In this document: positions 20,107-54,329 of the stretch, piece by piece
How the letters are laid out: every line of letters begins with the position of its first letter
Position numbering within the stretch: the first letter of the stretch is position 1
Virus record (IMG/VR): IMGVR_UViG_3300020042_003373
Location: 1-54,329 of that record
Length of the DNA stretch: 54,329 nt
DNA from: a virus
Lineage: Duplodnaviria > Caudoviricetes
Strand: one strand, 5' to 3'
Made by a program: the position numbers and the translations under genes
The notes under the pieces: model-generated
Seen by the model: only the letters and a program-made list of their open reading frames with translations
Database searches by the model: none
Told to the model about the DNA's origin: nothing

Positions 20107-20612
20107 CCATCCCACGCAATCTATCCAACCTCGCCCCTGGCGCTAACACTGGCGGCGTTTTGAGCGCGAGCTATGGTGGTACGGGGCTTATTTCTCCTGG
20201 CACAAGCGGCAACGTCTTGGCCAGCAACGGAACGGCGTGGACTAGCACCAACACAATAACTAGCCCCATTCTTGTCACGCCTACCATCAATGACGGCTAC
20301 ATCGAAGAGACGGTTACCGCTAATACCAGCACAGCCTACACGATCTCGCTGACAGGTGGGTCATTCCAAATCCTAACGCTGACCGGCAATTGCACGTTCA
20401 CCTTCCCGACCGCCACTGCTGGGCAATCCTTCATGATGTTCCTCAAGCAAGACGCGACTGGTTCCAGAACTGTGACGTGGCCTGCTGTGGTGAAGTGGCC
20501 ATCCTCAACAGCGCCGACGATCACGGCGACAGCCAGTAAGGGGGATAAGTTTGTGTTCACTGCAGATGGCACAAATTGGCTTGGCTCCGTTGCTGGGCAG
20601 AATTACCTGTAA
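20103..20612 (+). CDS. Short fibre adaptor protein (module 2)
   Basis: Fibre GGTG repeat; LTLTGNCTFTFP...LKQDATGSRTVTWP..VKWP...D.F.F..DGTNW domain. Confidence 0.68.
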   Translation: MTIPRNLSNLAPGANTGGVLSASYGGTGLISPGTSGNVLASNGTAWTSTNTITSPILVTPTINDGYIEETVTANTSTAYTISLTGGSFQILTLTGNCTFTFPTATAGQSFMMFLKQDATGSRTVTWPAVVKWPSSTAPTITATASKGDKFVFTADGTNWLGSVAGQNYL

Positions 20613-22645
20613 TGTTTAGCGCGAATACAACTCAGGTTGCGGCGGCAACAGCGTCTCGGGCAATTGCTGTCGCTCACAGCGTATTTCCATTCATAACAGC
20701 TTATCCATGGTCAGTTTCCGGCTTCGGCACTAAATATGCCAATCCAGCAACCTTACCTGATGGTGTTGGCCGAGGCGTTGCATTCAGTACTGACGGCTCT
20801 GCAATAGCTGTCGCTCAAGACGATCCTCCCTACATATTAGCGTATCCGTGGTCAGGTTTTGGCTTTGGTACTAAATATGCCAATCCAGCAACCTTACCCA
20901 CTGGAGAGGGAAATGGCGTTGCATTCAGTACTAACGGCTCTGCTATTGCAGTGGCGCACAACACATCGCCATTTGTCTCAGCATATCCGTGGTCAGGTTC
21001 TGGGTTTGGCACAAAGTATGCTAACCCAACAACCCTACCTACCGCTATTGGCCGAGGCGTTGCATTTAGTCCTGACAGCTCTGCTATTGCTATTGCTCAT
21101 CAAACAGCACCATGTGTATCGGCCTATCCATGGTCAGGTTCTGGCTTTGGTACCAAGTACGCTAATCCCGCAACCCTCCCTACCGGCACTGGATTCGGCG
21201 TTGCATTCAGTAATAACGGCTCTGCAATTGCTGTCGCACACAGCTCAATTCCAGTCATATCAGCGTATCCATGGTCAGTTTCCGGTTTCGGAACTAAGTA
21301 CACCAATCCTGCAACCCCACCTACTGGCGATGCATACGGCGTTGCATTTAGTCCTGACAACTCTGCTATTGCTATTGCTCACGAAACATCTCTATTCATA
21401 TCAGCGTATCCATGGTCAGTTTCCGGCTTCGGCACTAAATATGCTAATCCAGCAACCTTACCTACTGGTATAGGATTAGGCGTTGCATTCAGTACTAACG
21501 GCTCTGCTATTGCTGTCGCTCACTCTACAACACCATTTGTATCGGCTTATCCTTGGTCAGGTTCCGGCTTCGGTACCAAGTACACCAATCCCGCAACCCT
21601 ACCTACTGGTAATGGAAACGGCGTCGCCTTCACTTCCGGCGGGTTTCCGGTTCAGCAGATTGCTGTTGGTCACGCTACAACACCGTTTGTTTCGGCGTAT
21701 CCGTGGTCTTCCAGTGGGTTCGGGACTAAGTATGCTAATCCAGCGACATTGCCCGTTAGTACAGGAAATGGCGTAGCTTTTAGTCCCAATGGTTCTGCTA
21801 TTGCTGTTGCCCATTCAACAACGCCATTTGTCTCAGCATATCCTTGGTTTTCAAGTGGGTTTGGAACTAAGTATGCTAATCCAGCAACATTGCCAACAGG
21901 AAACGGGTTCAGTGTTGCCTTTAGCCCTGACGGAACAGCAATTGCTGTCGGTCATTCCTCACCGCCTTTTGTGTCAGCATATCCGTGGTCAGTTTCTGGT
22001 TTTGGAACAAAATATGTTGATTCACCTACCTTTCCGACCAGCACGGGGCGCGGGGTAGCATTTAGTCCTTCTGGAACTGCAATAGCTGTCGCGCACGGTT
22101 TCATACCCTACATATCAGCATACTCATGGTCAGGTTCTGGTTTTGGGTCAAAGTATTCTAATCCAACTACCCTTCCAACAAGCGATGGCAGGAGCGTCTC
22201 ATTCAGTCCTGGCAGCACAGAAATTGCTGTCGCGCACGATTCCAGCCCCTACATAGCAGCATACTCATGGTCAGGTTCTGGGTTTGGAACTAAGTATGCT
22301 GATCCATCCACGTTGCCGACAGGAAACGGGTTAAGTGTTGCATTCAGCCCCGCTGGCACAGAGATTGCCATTGCTCATGCTGTAACGCCGTTTGTGTCGG
22401 CATACCCATGGACAACAGCTAGCGGCTTTGGAACTAAATATACAAACCCAGCCACACTGCCAGCAGCGCAAGGCAATGGCGTTGCGTTCAGCCGTGACGG
22501 CGCAACCCTTGCCGTTGCTCATACCACAACTCCGTTCATTACGGCGTACCCATGGTCAAGCTCCGGGTTCGGAACTAAATACACCAACCCAACCACATTG
22601 CCTGCCAGCACAGGAAATGGCGTTGCTTTCAACACAATCACCTAA
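20612..22645 (+). CDS. Double 7-bladed beta-propeller protein (putative receptor-binding protein)
   Basis: 14 copies of a ~47-aa repeat (IAVAH..PFVSAYPWS.SGFGTKY.NP.TLP...G.GVAFS), arranged 7+7; ATG overlaps the previous stop (TAATG). Confidence 0.78.
   Translation: MFSANTTQVAAATASRAIAVAHSVFPFITAYPWSVSGFGTKYANPATLPDGVGRGVAFSTDGSAIAVAQDDPPYILAYPWSGFGFGTKYANPATLPTGEGNGVAFSTNGSAIAVAHNTSPFVSAYPWSGSGFGTKYANPTTLPTAIGRGVAFSPDSSAIAIAHQTAPCVSAYPWSGSGFGTKYANPATLPTGTGFGVAFSNNGSAIAVAHSSIPVISAYPWSVSGFGTKYTNPATPPTGDAYGVAFSPDNSAIAIAHETSLFISAYPWSVSGFGTKYANPATLPTGIGLGVAFSTNGSAIAVAHSTTPFVSAYPWSGSGFGTKYTNPATLPTGNGNGVAFTSGGFPVQQIAVGHATTPFVSAYPWSSSGFGTKYANPATLPVSTGNGVAFSPNGSAIAVAHSTTPFVSAYPWFSSGFGTKYANPATLPTGNGFSVAFSPDGTAIAVGHSSPPFVSAYPWSVSGFGTKYVDSPTFPTSTGRGVAFSPSGTAIAVAHGFIPYISAYSWSGSGFGSKYSNPTTLPTSDGRSVSFSPGSTEIAVAHDSSPYIAAYSWSGSGFGTKYADPSTLPTGNGLSVAFSPAGTEIAIAHAVTPFVSAYPWTTASGFGTKYTNPATLPAAQGNGVAFSRDGATLAVAHTTTPFITAYPWSSSGFGTKYTNPTTLPASTGNGVAFNTIT
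20660..22630 (+). repeat. ~141-bp coding tandem repeat, 14 copies
   Basis: For example GGCTTCGGCACTAAATATGCC at 20720 and GGCTTTGGTACTAAATATGCC at 20861. Confidence 0.88.
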
Positions 22646-49856: not shown

Positions 49857-51563
49857 ATGAGCATTGACCCAGCTTACATAATGGCCAAGGCAAAAGGCCA
49901 ACAGGTCAGGGTCGCGTGCCCGGCATGCGAGCCGACACGCAAGACGCGCAATGATCCAAGTCTGTCCATCCACACAAACCCTGAAGGGGTTTTGGTCTGG
50001 CAGTGCTGGCATTGCGGAGAGACAGGAAGAACAACAGGGGCAAAGCCCCCAGGAGAGAAGAGTATGGCGATAACGCCGATGAGAAAGATTGAGAGCGACA
50101 GCCTGTCGCTTGATGCGCTGGTGTATCTTCAGGGTAGGTGTATCTCGCAAGCTACAGCCGAGAACCTTGGCGTCGTTTCTGGCAATCGCTGGTTCAAGAA
50201 GCTGTCCGCAGAACGCCCTGCCTTGGGCTTTGTGTATGGCCAGAACGGCAATGCCTATGCCGCGAAGTGGCGGTCACTTGAGGGCAAGGACTTCACCGCC
50301 GAGGGTGCTGCCGTCACGCTTTATCTGGCTGATCGGTTGACAGATACGTCCAGGGTGGTGATCACCGAGGGTGAGATGGATGCCCTCTCGTACTGGGAAG
50401 CGGGCATAGAAGCCGTTTCAATCCCCTCTGGAGCCATTGCCAGCGGCACTGCGGATGATGCTGCCCGGCTGCGCTGGATAGCCGCTCACGATGATCTGCT
50501 TGCGAATGCCAAGGAGATTTATCTGGCTGTCGATATGGATGACCCCGGTCAGATCACAGCACAAGAGCTGGCTCGTCGCCTAGGCAAACTCAAATGCTAC
50601 AAAGTGGAGTTCCCGTCAGGAACTAAAGACGCGAACGATGTTCTCGTTAAGAACGGCGCTGATGCACTGAGGGAAACAATCAAGAACGCCCAGCCCTGGC
50701 CCATCGAAGGCGTTGCTCAGCCTGTTGATTTCCATTCCAAGGTCATGGACTTGTACCAGAATGGTTTGCCCCCAGGCAATTCCACTGGTTGGTCCAGTGT
50801 GGACGATGTGTATACGCTTTGCCCAGGCAATCTAGTTGTTGTCACTGGCATCCCTGGTCACGGCAAGTCCACGTTCATCGATGCCATGCTGGTCAATGCG
50901 ATGCAGCAGCACAACTGGTCAGTGGCTTATGCCAGCTTTGAGAACCCGCCAGAGATTCATCTCTCAAAGCTGATTGCTCTGAAGCAGGGCAAACCCTTTG
51001 GCTATGGACCGACACCCCGCCTGAACAACACAGAGCTGGACGAGGGCATGGCCTGGGTGCAGGAGCATGTCACGTTCCTGACCCATGATGGTGTCATGCC
51101 CACGGTCGAGAGCCTAATAGAAAGGTTTGAGACTGCGGTGCGGCGCAATGGTGTTAAGGCTTGCGTCGTCGATCCGTTTAACTTCATCAAGTTGAATGGG
51201 AAAGATGGCGGAGTAGACACTGAAGCCATCAATGAAATGCTCAGTAAGTTCAAGATGTTTGCCCAGCGTAGTGAGGTTGTTTTCTTCATCATTGCTCATC
51301 CGGCGAAGCCAATGAACGCCGGTAGTGACTGGGTACCTACGGGTTACTCCATCAGTGGGTCTGCCCACTGGTATAACCGGGCCGACTTTGGTTTAACCAT
51401 GCACAGGAATGAAAGAATGTCATCCTTGCATGTTTGGAAATGCCGCTTCTCTCATCAAGGAAAGACCGGCAAGGTTGAGCTGTCATATGACAGGCCGACC
51501 GGGGGGTTCAGCGAACCGGGTTTGCCGCTGCCGGGCGATGATAGTTGGATGGACGACATCTAA
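49857..51563 (+). CDS. Primase-helicase (T7 gp4/Twinkle-like)
   Basis: Zn finger CPAC...CWHC; TOPRIM ITEGEMDALS and DMDDPG, KDAND; SF4 Walker A GIPGHGKS, VVDPFN, IAHP.K, ISGSA. Confidence 0.92.
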   Translation: MSIDPAYIMAKAKGQQVRVACPACEPTRKTRNDPSLSIHTNPEGVLVWQCWHCGETGRTTGAKPPGEKSMAITPMRKIESDSLSLDALVYLQGRCISQATAENLGVVSGNRWFKKLSAERPALGFVYGQNGNAYAAKWRSLEGKDFTAEGAAVTLYLADRLTDTSRVVITEGEMDALSYWEAGIEAVSIPSGAIASGTADDAARLRWIAAHDDLLANAKEIYLAVDMDDPGQITAQELARRLGKLKCYKVEFPSGTKDANDVLVKNGADALRETIKNAQPWPIEGVAQPVDFHSKVMDLYQNGLPPGNSTGWSSVDDVYTLCPGNLVVVTGIPGHGKSTFIDAMLVNAMQQHNWSVAYASFENPPEIHLSKLIALKQGKPFGYGPTPRLNNTELDEGMAWVQEHVTFLTHDGVMPTVESLIERFETAVRRNGVKACVVDPFNFIKLNGKDGGVDTEAINEMLSKFKMFAQRSEVVFFIIAHPAKPMNAGSDWVPTGYSISGSAHWYNRADFGLTMHRNERMSSLHVWKCRFSHQGKTGKVELSYDRPTGGFSEPGLPLPGDDSWMDDI

Positions 51564-51596
51564 AAGAAAAGAGGCTGGCAAATTAATGCCAGCCTC
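51562..51596 (-). terminator. Rho-independent terminator of the leftward RAMP-locus transcript
   Basis: GAGGCTGGCA-N6-TGCCAGCCTC stem (51571-51596); on the - strand it is followed by TTTTCTTTT. Confidence 0.75.
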
Positions 51597-51600
51597 CTAT

Positions 51601-51674
51601 GCGCCCTTAGCTCAGTTGGATAGAGCAGAAGCCTTCTAAGCTTCAGGCCGCTGGTTCGAATCCAGCAGGGCGCG
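51601..51674 (+). tRNA. tRNA-Arg(TCT), no encoded CCA
   Basis: Acceptor GCGCCCT/AGGGCGC+G; D arm GCTC-AGTTGGATA-GAGC; anticodon arm GAAGC-CTTCTAA-GCTTC; T arm GCTGG-TTCGAAT-CCAGC. Confidence 0.95.
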
Positions 51675-51683
51675 TATCCTCCA

Positions 51684-52136
51684 TCATGCCAGCGCCTCCC
51701 CTTCTTCGACGGCTTCCATCTGAGCCAGCGCCGCATCGATGTGAGGCACAAGCTCCGCGTACCGGCGATAGCGGGCGGTCACCCGGTGTACCTCGGCACG
51801 CATCTGCCTCAGCAAAGCCTCAGCCCTAACATCATCCTGCACCACCGCCTGGGTGAGGGCGTAGGCCGCCTTGGTCTGGTCATAGACATAAGCCCTAACC
51901 GGAATCAGCGCACCGTCAGGACGGGGCAACATGGTGACTGCGATTCTGATTGTTTCACCGGCTTGCTGTAACCGATATTTCCGAGCGGCTTCAGTGTCAT
52001 CCCATGTGAAGGCAGAATGAAGCGCTGTGTTATTTGACCGGGCAAAATCCACCACATCATCGGGCTTCAGTTCGCCACCGGCCTGAACCCGGAGCATCTC
52101 CAGCTCATGAAGCTGGTCTTTGTTTAGTGTTCTCAT
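51684..52136 (-). CDS. Conserved phage protein, companion of the RAMP/array locus
   Basis: AAGGAGAG RBS; G.L.P.DVVD.AR....LH..FTWDD..AA..YRL.QA...IR motif. Confidence 0.75.
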   Translation of the reverse strand: MRTLNKDQLHELEMLRVQAGGELKPDDVVDFARSNNTALHSAFTWDDTEAARKYRLQQAGETIRIAVTMLPRPDGALIPVRAYVYDQTKAAYALTQAVVQDDVRAEALLRQMRAEVHRVTARYRRYAELVPHIDAALAQMEAVEEGEALA

Positions 52137-52185
52137 TGTTCTCTCCTTAATCATCCACCGCACGATTGCTGCGGATGTTTAGGTA

Positions 52186-52818
52186 GCCGTGCCTGCGGTG
52201 CGGTGCCTATCCTTGCCCCGCCACGCCGCGCCAGTCCTTGCCTGCCGTGCCCTGCCTCACCAGTCCCCGCCCAGCCCCGCCACTCCTGTCCGGGCCTGCC
52301 ATGCCTTGCCGATCCCGGCCATACCGTTCCGGGCCGCGCCTTGCCTGCCGTGCCGGGCCGGGCCATACCTCGCCTGACCATGCCTCGCCTGACCATGTCT
52401 GCCGTGCCGTTCCTGGCCGTGCCCAGCCTTTCCTTGCCTTGCCTGCCGTGCCAATCCCCGCCATGCCAGTCCGGGCCAAGCCACGCCTTGCCTGCCGCGC
52501 CTTGCCATTCCGGGCCAGTCCAAGCCCCGCCTCGCCGCCCGCGCCACGCCTAGCCTAGCCTCGCCTGCCGTGCCCTGCCTCACCATCCCCGCCCAGCCCC
52601 GCCACTCCTGTCCACGCCTGCCGTGCCAGTCTTCGCCCTGCCCGTCCCCGCCGAACCCAACCATGCCTGCCGCGCCAATCCCCGCCAATCCCCGCCGGCC
52701 CTAGCCTCGCCATGCCTGCCGTGCCAATCCCAGCCGTGCCCTGCCAGTCCACTCCTAGCCTTGCCTGCCGCGCCAGTCCGCGCCCCGCTATGCCCTGCCA
52801 CGCCATACCTGCCATGCC
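52186..52818 (-). repeat. Array 1: GG(C/A/T)-NN pentamer array of ~12-13 units delimited by GGCAGGC
   Basis: Delimiters (+ strand GCCTGCC or variant) at 52191, 52240, 52294, 52343, 52397, 52441, 52490, 52563, 52616, 52665, 52714, 52763, 52807. Confidence 0.9.
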
Positions 52819-52820
52819 AA

Positions 52821-52848
52821 CTGCGCCCCGCCCGAAGGCAGGGCGCAG
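52821..52848 (-). other. cUUCGg tetraloop hairpin at the 5' end of array 1
   Basis: - strand CTGCGCCCTGCC-TTCG-GGCGGGGCGCAG (12 bp, one G-U), 6 nt after the RAMP stop codon. Confidence 0.8.
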
Positions 52849-52854
52849 CATGTA

Positions 52855-53502
52855 TTACTGCTGGCTGTTGTCGATTTCGAAGTGACCCCAGCCCATGCCA
52901 GTGCTGGCCTTCGAATCAGCGCGGCCTTCACCGACGCCAACCTGAGCGCCAACACGGGCAACAAGAGCGGCAACATCCCCCTGTGTGAACTGCTCACTGT
53001 CGAACCGGATACGCAGATCGGCAGCCCAGTCACGCCACATCGGGCGGGTACGGATATCAATAACGCCGGTAGCGTTACGGACATGCATGTCGGTGCGCTC
53101 CGGCTCGCCGGCAATGATCCGCACCAGCGGGGTGCCATCGATAACATCCAGACCATCAGCCTCCACAAACAGGGAGAGCTTAGCCAGGGTCATCTTAAAA
53201 CCGACCAAGCGGCATGCCGAGATCAGGCCGTTGCGGAATGCGCCAGCGTGAATGCCATCCCACCCCTCAGAGGACAGGTGGCGTGCGCCTTGGAAGACTT
53301 CATCGAAGTCTTTCGGGTCACGCTTCGCGCCCTTCTTGGCAGTCGAGCCAGCCGCCATCTTTTCCATCATCGCCTGCTGCGCCTTGGCAGGAAAGCGATT
53401 GATCACCAGCGGTGCGGTGCCAACGATACGCAACACCATCCGCTGCATCGCGGGCGGCTTGATGTTAATGCTGGTCGTCGGAATCTTCGAAACTTCAGTC
53501 AT
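52855..53502 (-). CDS. Stand-alone RAMP (Cas7/Csm3-like) protein
   Basis: First strand LRIVGTAPLVI, IHAGAFRNGLISAC helix (compare the RAMP ipgssiKG.lR motif), and C-terminal Gly-rich loop GAQVGVGEGR....GMGWGHFEI; AAGGAGAG RBS. Confidence 0.7.
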   Translation of the reverse strand: MTEVSKIPTTSINIKPPAMQRMVLRIVGTAPLVINRFPAKAQQAMMEKMAAGSTAKKGAKRDPKDFDEVFQGARHLSSEGWDGIHAGAFRNGLISACRLVGFKMTLAKLSLFVEADGLDVIDGTPLVRIIAGEPERTDMHVRNATGVIDIRTRPMWRDWAADLRIRFDSEQFTQGDVAALVARVGAQVGVGEGRADSKASTGMGWGHFEIDNSQQ

Positions 53503-53580
53503 GATTATTCTCTCCTTGTTTAACCCACACCGTTATCAATGTGGGGTAGTCAACTAAAGGACCATTCCTTCAGTTGTTAT

Positions 53581-53867
53581 TCCTGCGGTGCTTTGCCTTG
53601 CCCCGCCACACCAATCCAAGCCGTGCCCCACCTGACCCGGCCACGCCTAGCCTGCCGTGCCTTGCCAATCCAGGCCGCGCCGATCCTTGCCTTGCCTGCC
53701 GTACCTCGCCAGTCCGCGCCACGCCATGCCGGGCCACGCCTGTCCACGCCAGTCCACGCCTGCCGTGCCGTTCCTGACCGTGCCTGTCCTGGCCAAGCCC
53801 TGCCTTGCCTGCCTTACCCTACCAGTCCCCGCCAAGCCCCGCCTGGCCAATCCACGCCTGCCTTGCC
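53581..53867 (-). repeat. Array 2: GG(C/A/T)-NN pentamer array of 5 units
   Basis: Delimiters at 53581, 53650, 53694, 53758, 53807, 53856 (spacings 69, 44, 64, 49, 49, all 5n+4). Confidence 0.9.
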
Positions 53868-54095
53868 TTAGCGTCCGCCCTCAGCCTCCACCCTGCGGGC
53901 GCTCTTGAGGTAAGCTTTAGCCAGCATCAGCCGACCGAAGGCCAGATTTTCCGCGGCCCTGGACCGCAGCATGAGAGCAGTGAACCGCGTCATGGTTTCC
54001 GGCTCACTCACCTCCAGCTTTTCCCTCATATCCATGAGGATCTGCTGAGCTTCAGCATGCAGCAGCCTCGACCGAACGAATACCCGCTCATTCAT
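53868..54095 (-). CDS. Hypothetical helical protein
   Basis: AAGGAGAG RBS before MNERVF; its stop abuts array 2. Confidence 0.6.
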   Translation of the reverse strand: MNERVFVRSRLLHAEAQQILMDMREKLEVSEPETMTRFTALMLRSRAAENLAFGRLMLAKAYLKSARRVEAEGGR

Positions 54096-54097
54096 TG

Positions 54098-54283
54098 TCA
54101 CTCTCCTTTTTCTTCTTCGCATTTATGTTCTGTTTCTACTGGGCCGTCAACTCCCGGCGTACCTTTCTTGCATTTCCCCATACATTCATTGCACCTCCCA
54201 AAAATACAATGCCAGCGGCTGTACTCATGGTCGAGCAGTCCCATCCAATCATTCATTGCGTCTTTTGCTGTGACCCACGACAT
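54098..54283 (-). CDS. Small Cys-rich hypothetical protein
   Basis: HC..GRC.EC...C; in line with the leftward operon. Confidence 0.45.
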   Translation of the reverse strand: MSWVTAKDAMNDWMGLLDHEYSRWHCIFGRCNECMGKCKKGTPGVDGPVETEHKCEEEKGE

Positions 54284-54329
54284 CCCAGAAAAGAAATCTG
54301 GGTGAAGGTAGACCTCCCCCTCTCCTGCA

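Follow-up and report, generated by a model that had tools for sequence, protein, structure and literature searches.

Results

Organisation of the locus

The window, by which we mean the whole stretch of 54,329 nt that was analysed, is a phage contig carrying terminase, Erf, exonuclease, MazG-like and primase-helicase genes. Near its end the minus strand presents, in this order, a small ORF, a run of GGNNN pentamers (array 2), the gene of a minimal RAMP protein (vipr), a further run of pentamers (array 1), a vap-like gene and a terminator-like hairpin. The gene names are those of the VIPR (Viral Interference Programmable Repeat) systems, which are described as consisting of a small ancestral RAMP protein, Vipr, with accessory vap genes and as residing mostly in phages (10.64898/2026.04.26.720920).

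The vipr gene (52855..53502, minus strand) encodes a Cas7/Csm3-like protein of 215 aa and is flanked by array 2 (53584..53867, minus strand) on one side and by array 1 (52199..52818, minus strand) on the other. Array 2 is directly abutted by the stop codon TAA (53870-53868) of the upstream ORF (53868..54122, minus strand), which is 84 aa long from its first ATG and 75 aa from the ATG at 54095 that follows a GGAGAG ribosome-binding site. This ORF belongs to no Pfam, PHROG or NCBIfam family, and a homolog was found in one of the 25 related loci considered below, namely L005, in which Vipr is 100% identical to that of the window and the flanks are nearly identical. Judging by sequence comparison, the ORF probably lies outside the conserved VIPR module.

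Two stem-loops are predicted on the minus strand (53524..53576; 53576-53551 and 53545-53524) after array 2 has ended and ahead of the ribosome-binding site of vipr (AAGGAGAG, 53518-53511, minus strand), with a folding energy of −27.7 kcal/mol and a z of −3.97 relative to shuffles; this flank is nearly identical in L005, where the single change falls in a loop. A GC-rich stem-loop (52813..52852, minus strand) is predicted between the vipr stop codon and the array 1 leader (−30.6 kcal/mol, z −3.87, none of 200 shuffles as stable) and recurs in L005, where it carries a single change. Its role could be that of an attenuator, a site for processing or a stabiliser. Array 1 itself opens with the leader GGCAT-GGCA, comprises 13 units (a1–a13) and ends in GGCAC-CGCA followed by CCGCA-GGCAC-GGCTA. 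One of its units, a5 (52618-52566), is a copy of a12 (52296-52243) minus one base (GGACT to GGAT), and this 1-nt deletion disrupts the pentamer phase in the middle of the unit; the pair is an internal duplication in which decay has begun.

The vap-like gene (51684..52136, minus strand) encodes 150 aa from the ATG after its own copy of AAGGAGAG, or 159 aa from an upstream GTG. Beyond it a 12-pair stem with a T-run (51569..51598, minus strand), identified as terminator-like by consensus match only, could end the minus-strand operon and perhaps both converging transcripts. A tRNA-Arg(TCT) gene (51600-51675, plus strand) separates the end of the operon from the primase-helicase gene and runs antisense. 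A consensus scan of 51500-54329 revealed no sigma-70-like promoter, and the arrays contain no Rfam family or ribozyme. Elsewhere in the window, about 12 tandem units of 141 nt (47 aa; 70–78% identity) occupy 20663-22368 within the plus-strand ORF 20576-22645, whose 689-aa product, encoded in the structural region, resembles a tail or fibre protein built of repeats.

Pentamers and junctions of array 2

Read along the minus strand, array 2 consists of the leader GGCAA-GGCA (53867-53859) and five vrRNA-like units. The first two, u1 (53858-53810) and u2 (53809-53761), are 49 nt long with 9 pentamers each; u3 (53760-53697) has 64 nt and 12 pentamers, and u4 (53696-53653) has 44 nt and 8 pentamers. 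Each of these four units closes in a 4-nt hitch, GGCA, and the last unit, u5 (53652-53584; 69 nt, 13 pentamers), closes in AGCAC-CGCA. On the plus strand the delimiters start at 53582, 53651, 53695, 53759, 53808 and 53857, with spacings of 69, 44, 64, 49 and 49, and all four internal junctions of the array shift the pentamer register by +4, which equals −1. The earlier reading of this DNA, made from the sequence only, had described five units of exactly these lengths under a 5n+4 rule and had let them begin immediately behind the stop codon of the gene upstream; the delimiter spacings bear out the rule, which is common to array 1, and TAA at 53870-53868 indeed adjoins position 53867.

Counted over the five units, GG stands at the start of 50 of the 51 pentamers; position 3 is C in 34 of them, A in 10, T in 7 and G in none, and positions 4 and 5 are variable. 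The tract, with 70% G+C and 48% G on one strand, holds 50 GG..GG pairs at a lag of 5, compared with 15.2 ± 3.2 (maximum 26) in 1000 dinucleotide-preserving shuffles, and a density of at least 10 such pairs per 100 nt is reached at only two places in the whole 54-kb window, arrays 1 and 2, both on the minus strand. A 2291-nt contig from an independent DNA run (X4) spans 51684-53949 with one letter different, so the arrays are no assembly artefact.

The RAMP protein and the vap-like protein

The product of vipr falls into no Pfam or NCBIfam family and is a member of phrog_4652, with relatives amounting to 2085 representatives at E ≤ 1e-3. Its AF2 model (pLDDT 93) has Csm3 as the best Foldseek match in the PDB (E 1.8e-5). 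In the VIA-align comparison Csm3 was aligned over 149 residues with a Z of 11.4 and an rmsd of 3.6, and ranks 1–34 were all CRISPR RAMPs. The proposal that array 2 is a second guide-like array linked to a RAMP gene is thus upheld by the fold of the protein between the arrays.

At the sequence level Vipr matches PDB 36pp_D, the 'SUSP1 Vipr protein', with E 4.9e-4 for the single sequence and 3.6e-6 for the profile (alignment A1), the confident alignment being limited to about 56 C-terminal residues, the thumb and G-loop region. Here R138 and R179 of SUSP1, two residues singled out in the structural study (10.64898/2026.04.26.720927), align to R153, which is nearly invariant in A1, and to the invariant R194, and the D177-W178-R179 of the SUSP1 G-loop is aligned to E192-G193-R194. 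The C-terminal motif of the present protein reads GVGEGR...GMGWGHF, and its G185, G193, R194 and G206 are invariant in 39 sequences.

In 17 of the 25 related loci vipr is followed on its own strand by a homolog of the vap-like gene. The protein is a member of phrog_15946, has no NCBIfam or Pfam family, and its AF2 model (pLDDT 93) gave no Foldseek match at E ≤ 1e-3; in the Atlas it falls into viral 'hypothetical protein' clusters only. The N-terminal domain of the model is weakly winged-helix-like (VIA Z 5.7–6.7, within the common range) and is followed by a long C-terminal helix, an architecture that would be compatible with the 'predicted DNA-binding' vap genes of the published systems.

Related loci and the junction rule

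Vipr and its arrays recur in the cyanophage Cy-LDV1 (62% identity). Homologs of Vipr and their arrays were further found in 25 Mycobacterium and 5 Gordonia phage records (27–30% identity), including Cluster F mycobacteriophages, in 21 IMG/VR contigs and in two MAG contigs, one from a cyanobacterial and one from a Rhodobacteraceae MAG (59–60%). In Saal and Cy-LDV1 the VIPR module is part of the early region, with genes for a repressor, an antirepressor or an excisionase nearby.

The window and 25 relatives (26 loci) were parsed with phase tracking, and arrays of at least 50 nt were counted. There are 32 such arrays in 23 of the loci, every one of them on the strand of vipr; none was found by this parse in L008, L012 and L022, the last of which has almost no downstream DNA. 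The register shifts by +4 at 150 of the 157 junctions. The commonest unit lengths are 49 nt (31 units) and 44 nt (23 units), with a main range of 44–69 nt and a maximum of 74 nt, and the internal hitch conforms to NGCA (GGCA at 60, CGCA at 40 and TGCA at 14 of 135 junctions). Among 834 pentamers of the family G occupies position 1 in 97.5% and position 2 in 92%, position 3 is C in 74%, A in 13%, T in 11% and G in 1.4%, and positions 4 and 5 are variable. The NN codes are hypervariable: 8 of 89 are shared, all of them between near-identical pairs. Arrays upstream of vipr occur in three loci only, those of the window, L005 and Saal (L002).

In mycobacteriophage Saal this upstream pentamer array occupies 3570-3830 of L002 and has equivalents in other Cluster F records; the tract lies under a 'hypothetical protein' CDS in DRBy19 (gene 51), Gorge (gene 53) and BobaPhett (gene 51) and is unannotated in others. 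If such annotations under the array match were taken at face value, array 2 might be regarded as protein-coding, the more so as ORFs of 55–110 aa overlap 53539-53908 in several frames. The period of the tract, however, is 5 and not 3, and every unit shifts the frame by −1, so that none of the reading frames stays in step with the repeat; moreover, a sequence of 70% G+C without stop-prone triplets is expected to be open on both strands. We find a coding role for array 2 scarcely credible, and the 'hypothetical protein' calls over the mycobacteriophage arrays are probably wrong.

The terminal variant and the turnover of units

Both arrays of the window end in the same delimiter variant, CCTGCGGTGC, which is found at 53582 in array 2 and again at 52192 at the end of array 1. 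Of the 25 arrays of the family (out of 32) whose last hitch is readable, 17 have CGCA there and 8 have GGCA, as compared with CGCA at 40 of the 135 internal hitches; Fisher's test gives p 4.5e-4 for this enrichment and 7e-4 when the duplicate locus L020 is left out, values that overstate independence because the loci are related. One of the 17 arrays (that of L007) sits at a contig end. Many arrays finish in ...CGCA-GGCAC, after which unrelated sequence follows. The CGCA-rich last junction is a family trait. In several loci, among them L003, L011 and L017, CGCA is also the usual hitch inside the array, and in L005 the upstream array has CGCA at its leader, at one internal junction and at its end, the downstream array ending in GGCA. 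The degenerate terminal delimiter that had been claimed for both arrays is therefore real as a shared and terminally enriched variant and mistaken as to degeneracy, since elsewhere the same hitch serves regularly inside arrays.

Comparison of the window with L005 shows how the units are exchanged. The unit u4 is present letter for letter in L005, is the penultimate one in both arrays and is the only unit exactly shared, and the units on either side of it differ. In array 1 one unit is a close variant, another is partly shared and all others differ. From these sequences guide turnover looks like cassette replacement between conserved flanks and not like addition at one end. In the DNA runs X4 and X5 contigs over 52211-52784 and 53636-53848 have other unit orders or sets, with loose ends of other pentamer runs; in one example a joint from 52310 to 52778 skips 467 nt inside array 1. 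The other unit orders indicate that several array versions coexist in nature.

The sequence-only reading had likened the terminal variant to the degenerate last repeat of a CRISPR array and had taken it to suggest polarity. An adaptive array of that kind would have the delimiters as repeats and the pentamer runs as spacers added at one end, the degenerate repeat marking the old end, and both the variant common to the ends of the two arrays and the terminal enrichment of CGCA across the family would suit it. The 'spacers' are, however, strictly phased GGNNN and not captured foreign DNA, and the conserved junction is about 10–14 nt long, as against the identical direct repeats of 20–50 nt that alternate with unrelated spacers in a CRISPR array. 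Growth at one end was not seen between the window and L005, whose units differ to either side of the one in common, and CGCA is common as an internal hitch elsewhere. The locus holds nothing like adaptation genes: no Cas1/Cas2-like match was obtained among the 15 neighbouring proteins scanned against family libraries, and the tandem-repeat scan of the window gave no CRISPR-like repeat array. The proposed polarity was thus not borne out, and we regard a CRISPR-like adaptive array as very unlikely.

Transcription, targets and the NN code

In the RNA-library (metatranscriptome) run X24 a 160-nt contig is 100% identical to 53650-53809, over u2–u4, and in the run X23 a contig lies over vipr (52967-53151), DNA carry-over being possible in both cases; the matches are contigs with no strand or end information, and each run covers 3 of 30 bins. 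An exact contig from an RNA library bears on the question of whether the arrays might act as DNA. A GG every 5 nt is compatible with a two-quartet G4 motif and the tract has 48% G on one strand, so that one may think of a structural or protein-binding element, either a lattice of phased GG that is bound in its double-stranded form or (GGNNN)n folded into two-tetrad G-quadruplexes in replication or transcription. Besides the X24 contig, the orientation of all 32 arrays with vipr, the hypervariable positions 4–5 next to a fixed GG and the homology of Vipr to a protein whose structure is reported with RNA of this kind speak against such an element, which we consider highly improbable.

Targets were sought with several sets of units. 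The 17 units of the window, under skip rules 0–3, gave nothing above the shuffled-guide maxima in the window and the 25 loci (227 kb) except the guides themselves at skip 3, and 73 distinct units from all loci, compared with all loci at skip 1 with up to 2 mismatches, gave 0 matches versus 4 for shuffled guides. The exact 1-nt-skip pattern of u3 has no match in viral contigs and none in metagenome contigs, and those of a12 and u5 (10 NN) have none in viral contigs. With 11 NN, u5 has a single metagenome match (L026 1345-1376, Ga0307511_10036670), which is probably due to chance, the next two NN being mismatched; this contig has no phage hallmark in its ORF list, and the match runs antisense to an ORF of 485 aa, whose first codon positions coincide with the skipped bases. 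For u4 (16 fixed bases) 31 viral matches were obtained, roughly the chance number, in unrelated contigs of 28–58% G+C and with no convergence. Several of the DNA runs that hold the phage are labelled as fungus metagenomes.

The usage of NN in 567 internal pentamers (77 distinct units) tracks codon positions 1–2 of the phage ORFs (rho 0.73, p 0.0014), as opposed to a rho of −0.01 for positions 2–3 and of −0.50 for positions 3–1 across the family. In the window only (119 internal pentamers) the correlation with positions 1–2 is not significant (rho 0.44, p 0.09). The family-wide correlation is an indirect hint at a skip-the-wobble rule.

It may be asked whether array 2, even if it is of the VIPR type, holds five working guides. 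Instead it might be a duplicate in decay, or might yield one long transcript by which Vipr is titrated or regulated, just upstream of the vipr gene. In keeping with this are the rarity of upstream arrays (3 of 26 loci), the lack of a target in the searched loci and collections, the eroded pentamers AGCAC-CGCA at the end of the last unit and the decayed copy a5 in array 1. Array 2 nevertheless keeps GG in 50 of 51 pentamers and a canonical GGCA at 4 of 4 internal hitches, and its unit sizes fall within the main 44–69 nt range of the family. That u4 is unchanged in L005 among neighbours that have been replaced suggests that selection acts on individual units. According to the published description SUSP1 also has an expressed upstream vrRNA. 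We think an array without five working guides unlikely.

Discussion

Array 2 as a probable set of vrRNAs

Seven VIPR types have been distinguished, and the vrRNAs are described as runs of 9–16 YNNGG repeats, with alternative NNNGG repeats and 'a related consensus' being allowed; in SUSP1 vrRNAs lie upstream and downstream of the genes, and the upstream one is expressed (10.64898/2026.04.26.720920). The array forms include, according to the legend of fig. S18, 'staggered arrays' of overlapping vrRNAs with 1-nt overlaps, and the sRNA-seq confirmation given in the text concerns ribozyme arrays and single-vrRNA systems and not staggered arrays (10.64898/2026.04.26.720920). In the structural account one Vipr protomer binds each pentamer, GGY is clamped and NN exposed, and purines are described as being kept out of the Y pocket in the solved SUSP1 complex (10.64898/2026.04.26.720927). 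The NN dinucleotides are reported to read double-stranded DNA with a one-base skip and to silence transcription, competing prophages and satellites being the natural targets. Further preprints on VIPR appeared in 2026 (10.64898/2026.10.15.759431, 10.64898/2026.10.21.760802).

The features described above correspond closely to these systems. The protein is a small (~20 kDa) single-RRM RAMP with a thumb and a glycine-rich loop, is homologous in sequence to a characterised Vipr (36pp_D) and has an accessory gene adjoining its own; the guides are built of pentamers on the vipr strand, 8–13 in each (9–14 if the overlapping GGCA+G is counted), with the deviation that position 3 is A in 10 of 51; and the location is viral, with neither cas genes (15 proteins scanned) nor a CRISPR array. 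The register shift of −1 at successive junctions is that of the staggered form, and the structured 3′ tail that type II systems have on each unit is absent, the units being joined by 4-nt hitches with hairpins at the array ends only. We conclude that 51684-53867 on the minus strand is very probably a VIPR locus of an uncultivated freshwater phage and that array 2 is probably transcribed with the operon, most likely to give five vrRNAs. The locus is a further example of the already published VIPR, apparently in its staggered-array form. By analogy with the published figure legend, the 5n+4 rule, which equals 5(n+1)−1, appears to be the 'staggered' 1-nt overlap (...GGCA[G]GCAA...), in which a single G ends one register and begins the following one.

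On this interpretation, transcription of array 2 with the operon would yield five vrRNAs made of GG(C/A/T)-NN pentamers. As in the published systems, each Vipr protomer would bind one pentamer, clamp its GGY and leave NN exposed, and the resulting helical filament would read double-stranded DNA in steps of two bases, passing over one base between them, and would silence transcription of competing mobile elements; we infer that this branch uses the same NN code. The 4-nt hitch NGCA, by shifting the pentamer register by −1, would delimit successive vrRNAs, and the length of the unit, 8–13 pentamers (9–14 with the overlapping GGCA+G), would set the length of the filament and of the target. The suggestion, drawn earlier from the variable unit length, that RNP filaments of variable length are formed agrees by analogy with the one protomer per pentamer of the published complex (10.64898/2026.04.26.720927). 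The last junction, made up of CGCA, one further GG pentamer and hairpins in that order, would mark the 3′ end of the array and would not be a relic of polarised growth.

The junction may have a more specific role, which we put forward tentatively and as somewhat doubtful. In this tail-less staggered branch the sequence of pentamer, NGCA and GGC-pentamer might serve as the maturation and phasing signal, with the guide ends set either by Vipr, a RAMP akin to Cas6, or by hitch phasing, and a dedicated CGCA last junction might stop assembly. The same proposal has the clamp accept A at position 3 in a pocket unlike the solved one. Given that the Y pocket is described as excluding purines, the presence of A at this position suggests that the clamp differs in this clade.

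Significance

The logic of array 2 was recovered from raw sequence alone, for a system published only in 2026. The locus offers a clean natural example of the staggered, tail-less form, which the papers describe, as far as their published text goes, only in a supplementary figure, and together with its relatives (26 loci) it adds the NGCA junction consensus and the CGCA-rich last junction. The array also reveals tolerance of A at the 'Y' position, and the pair of phages with identical Vipr and one guide in common gives a sharp picture of guide turnover. If the junction is in fact a processing signal, it would permit very compact multiplexed guide arrays, with 44–69 nt per guide and no tail.

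Comparison with known systems

The nearest counterpart is the staggered VIPR, which, as outlined in the paper, likewise has a lone small RAMP gene and an accessory gene in a phage, GG-anchored pentamers on the strand of the gene, and neighbouring units that, if the 5n+4 rule here is so read, overlap by 1 nt with no ribozyme and no long tail between them. The present arrays differ from it in that position 3 is C, A or T (A in 13–20%) and not Y, and the present analysis adds the family-wide NGCA hitch consensus and a last junction rich in CGCA, for which we know of no counterpart in the paper.

Escherichia phage SUSP1, whose type II VIPR is represented by PDB 36pp, resembles our phage in its homologous Vipr, in having vrRNAs on both sides of the genes and in a small accessory protein predicted to bind DNA, although the gene here is termed vap-like and need not be vap1 among the published vap1–6. 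A SUSP1 guide is reported to have 10–12 pentamers, as against 8–13 here (9–14 with the overlapping pentamer), and its vrRNA of ~100 nt to carry a conserved pseudoknot tail of ~40 nt, whereas the units here abut through a 4-nt hitch.

With the backbone of Class 1 CRISPR systems, Cas7/Csm3 on crRNA, VIPR shares the RAMP fold, the binding of one protomer per fixed guide step and the flipped bases. The system described here has no repeat-spacer units, no Cas6/Cas5 caps and no cas1/cas2, is borne by a phage and varies its guide length within one array; the step of VIPR is 5 nt with 2 reading bases, in contrast to 6 nt with 5 reading bases in Class 1 CRISPR.
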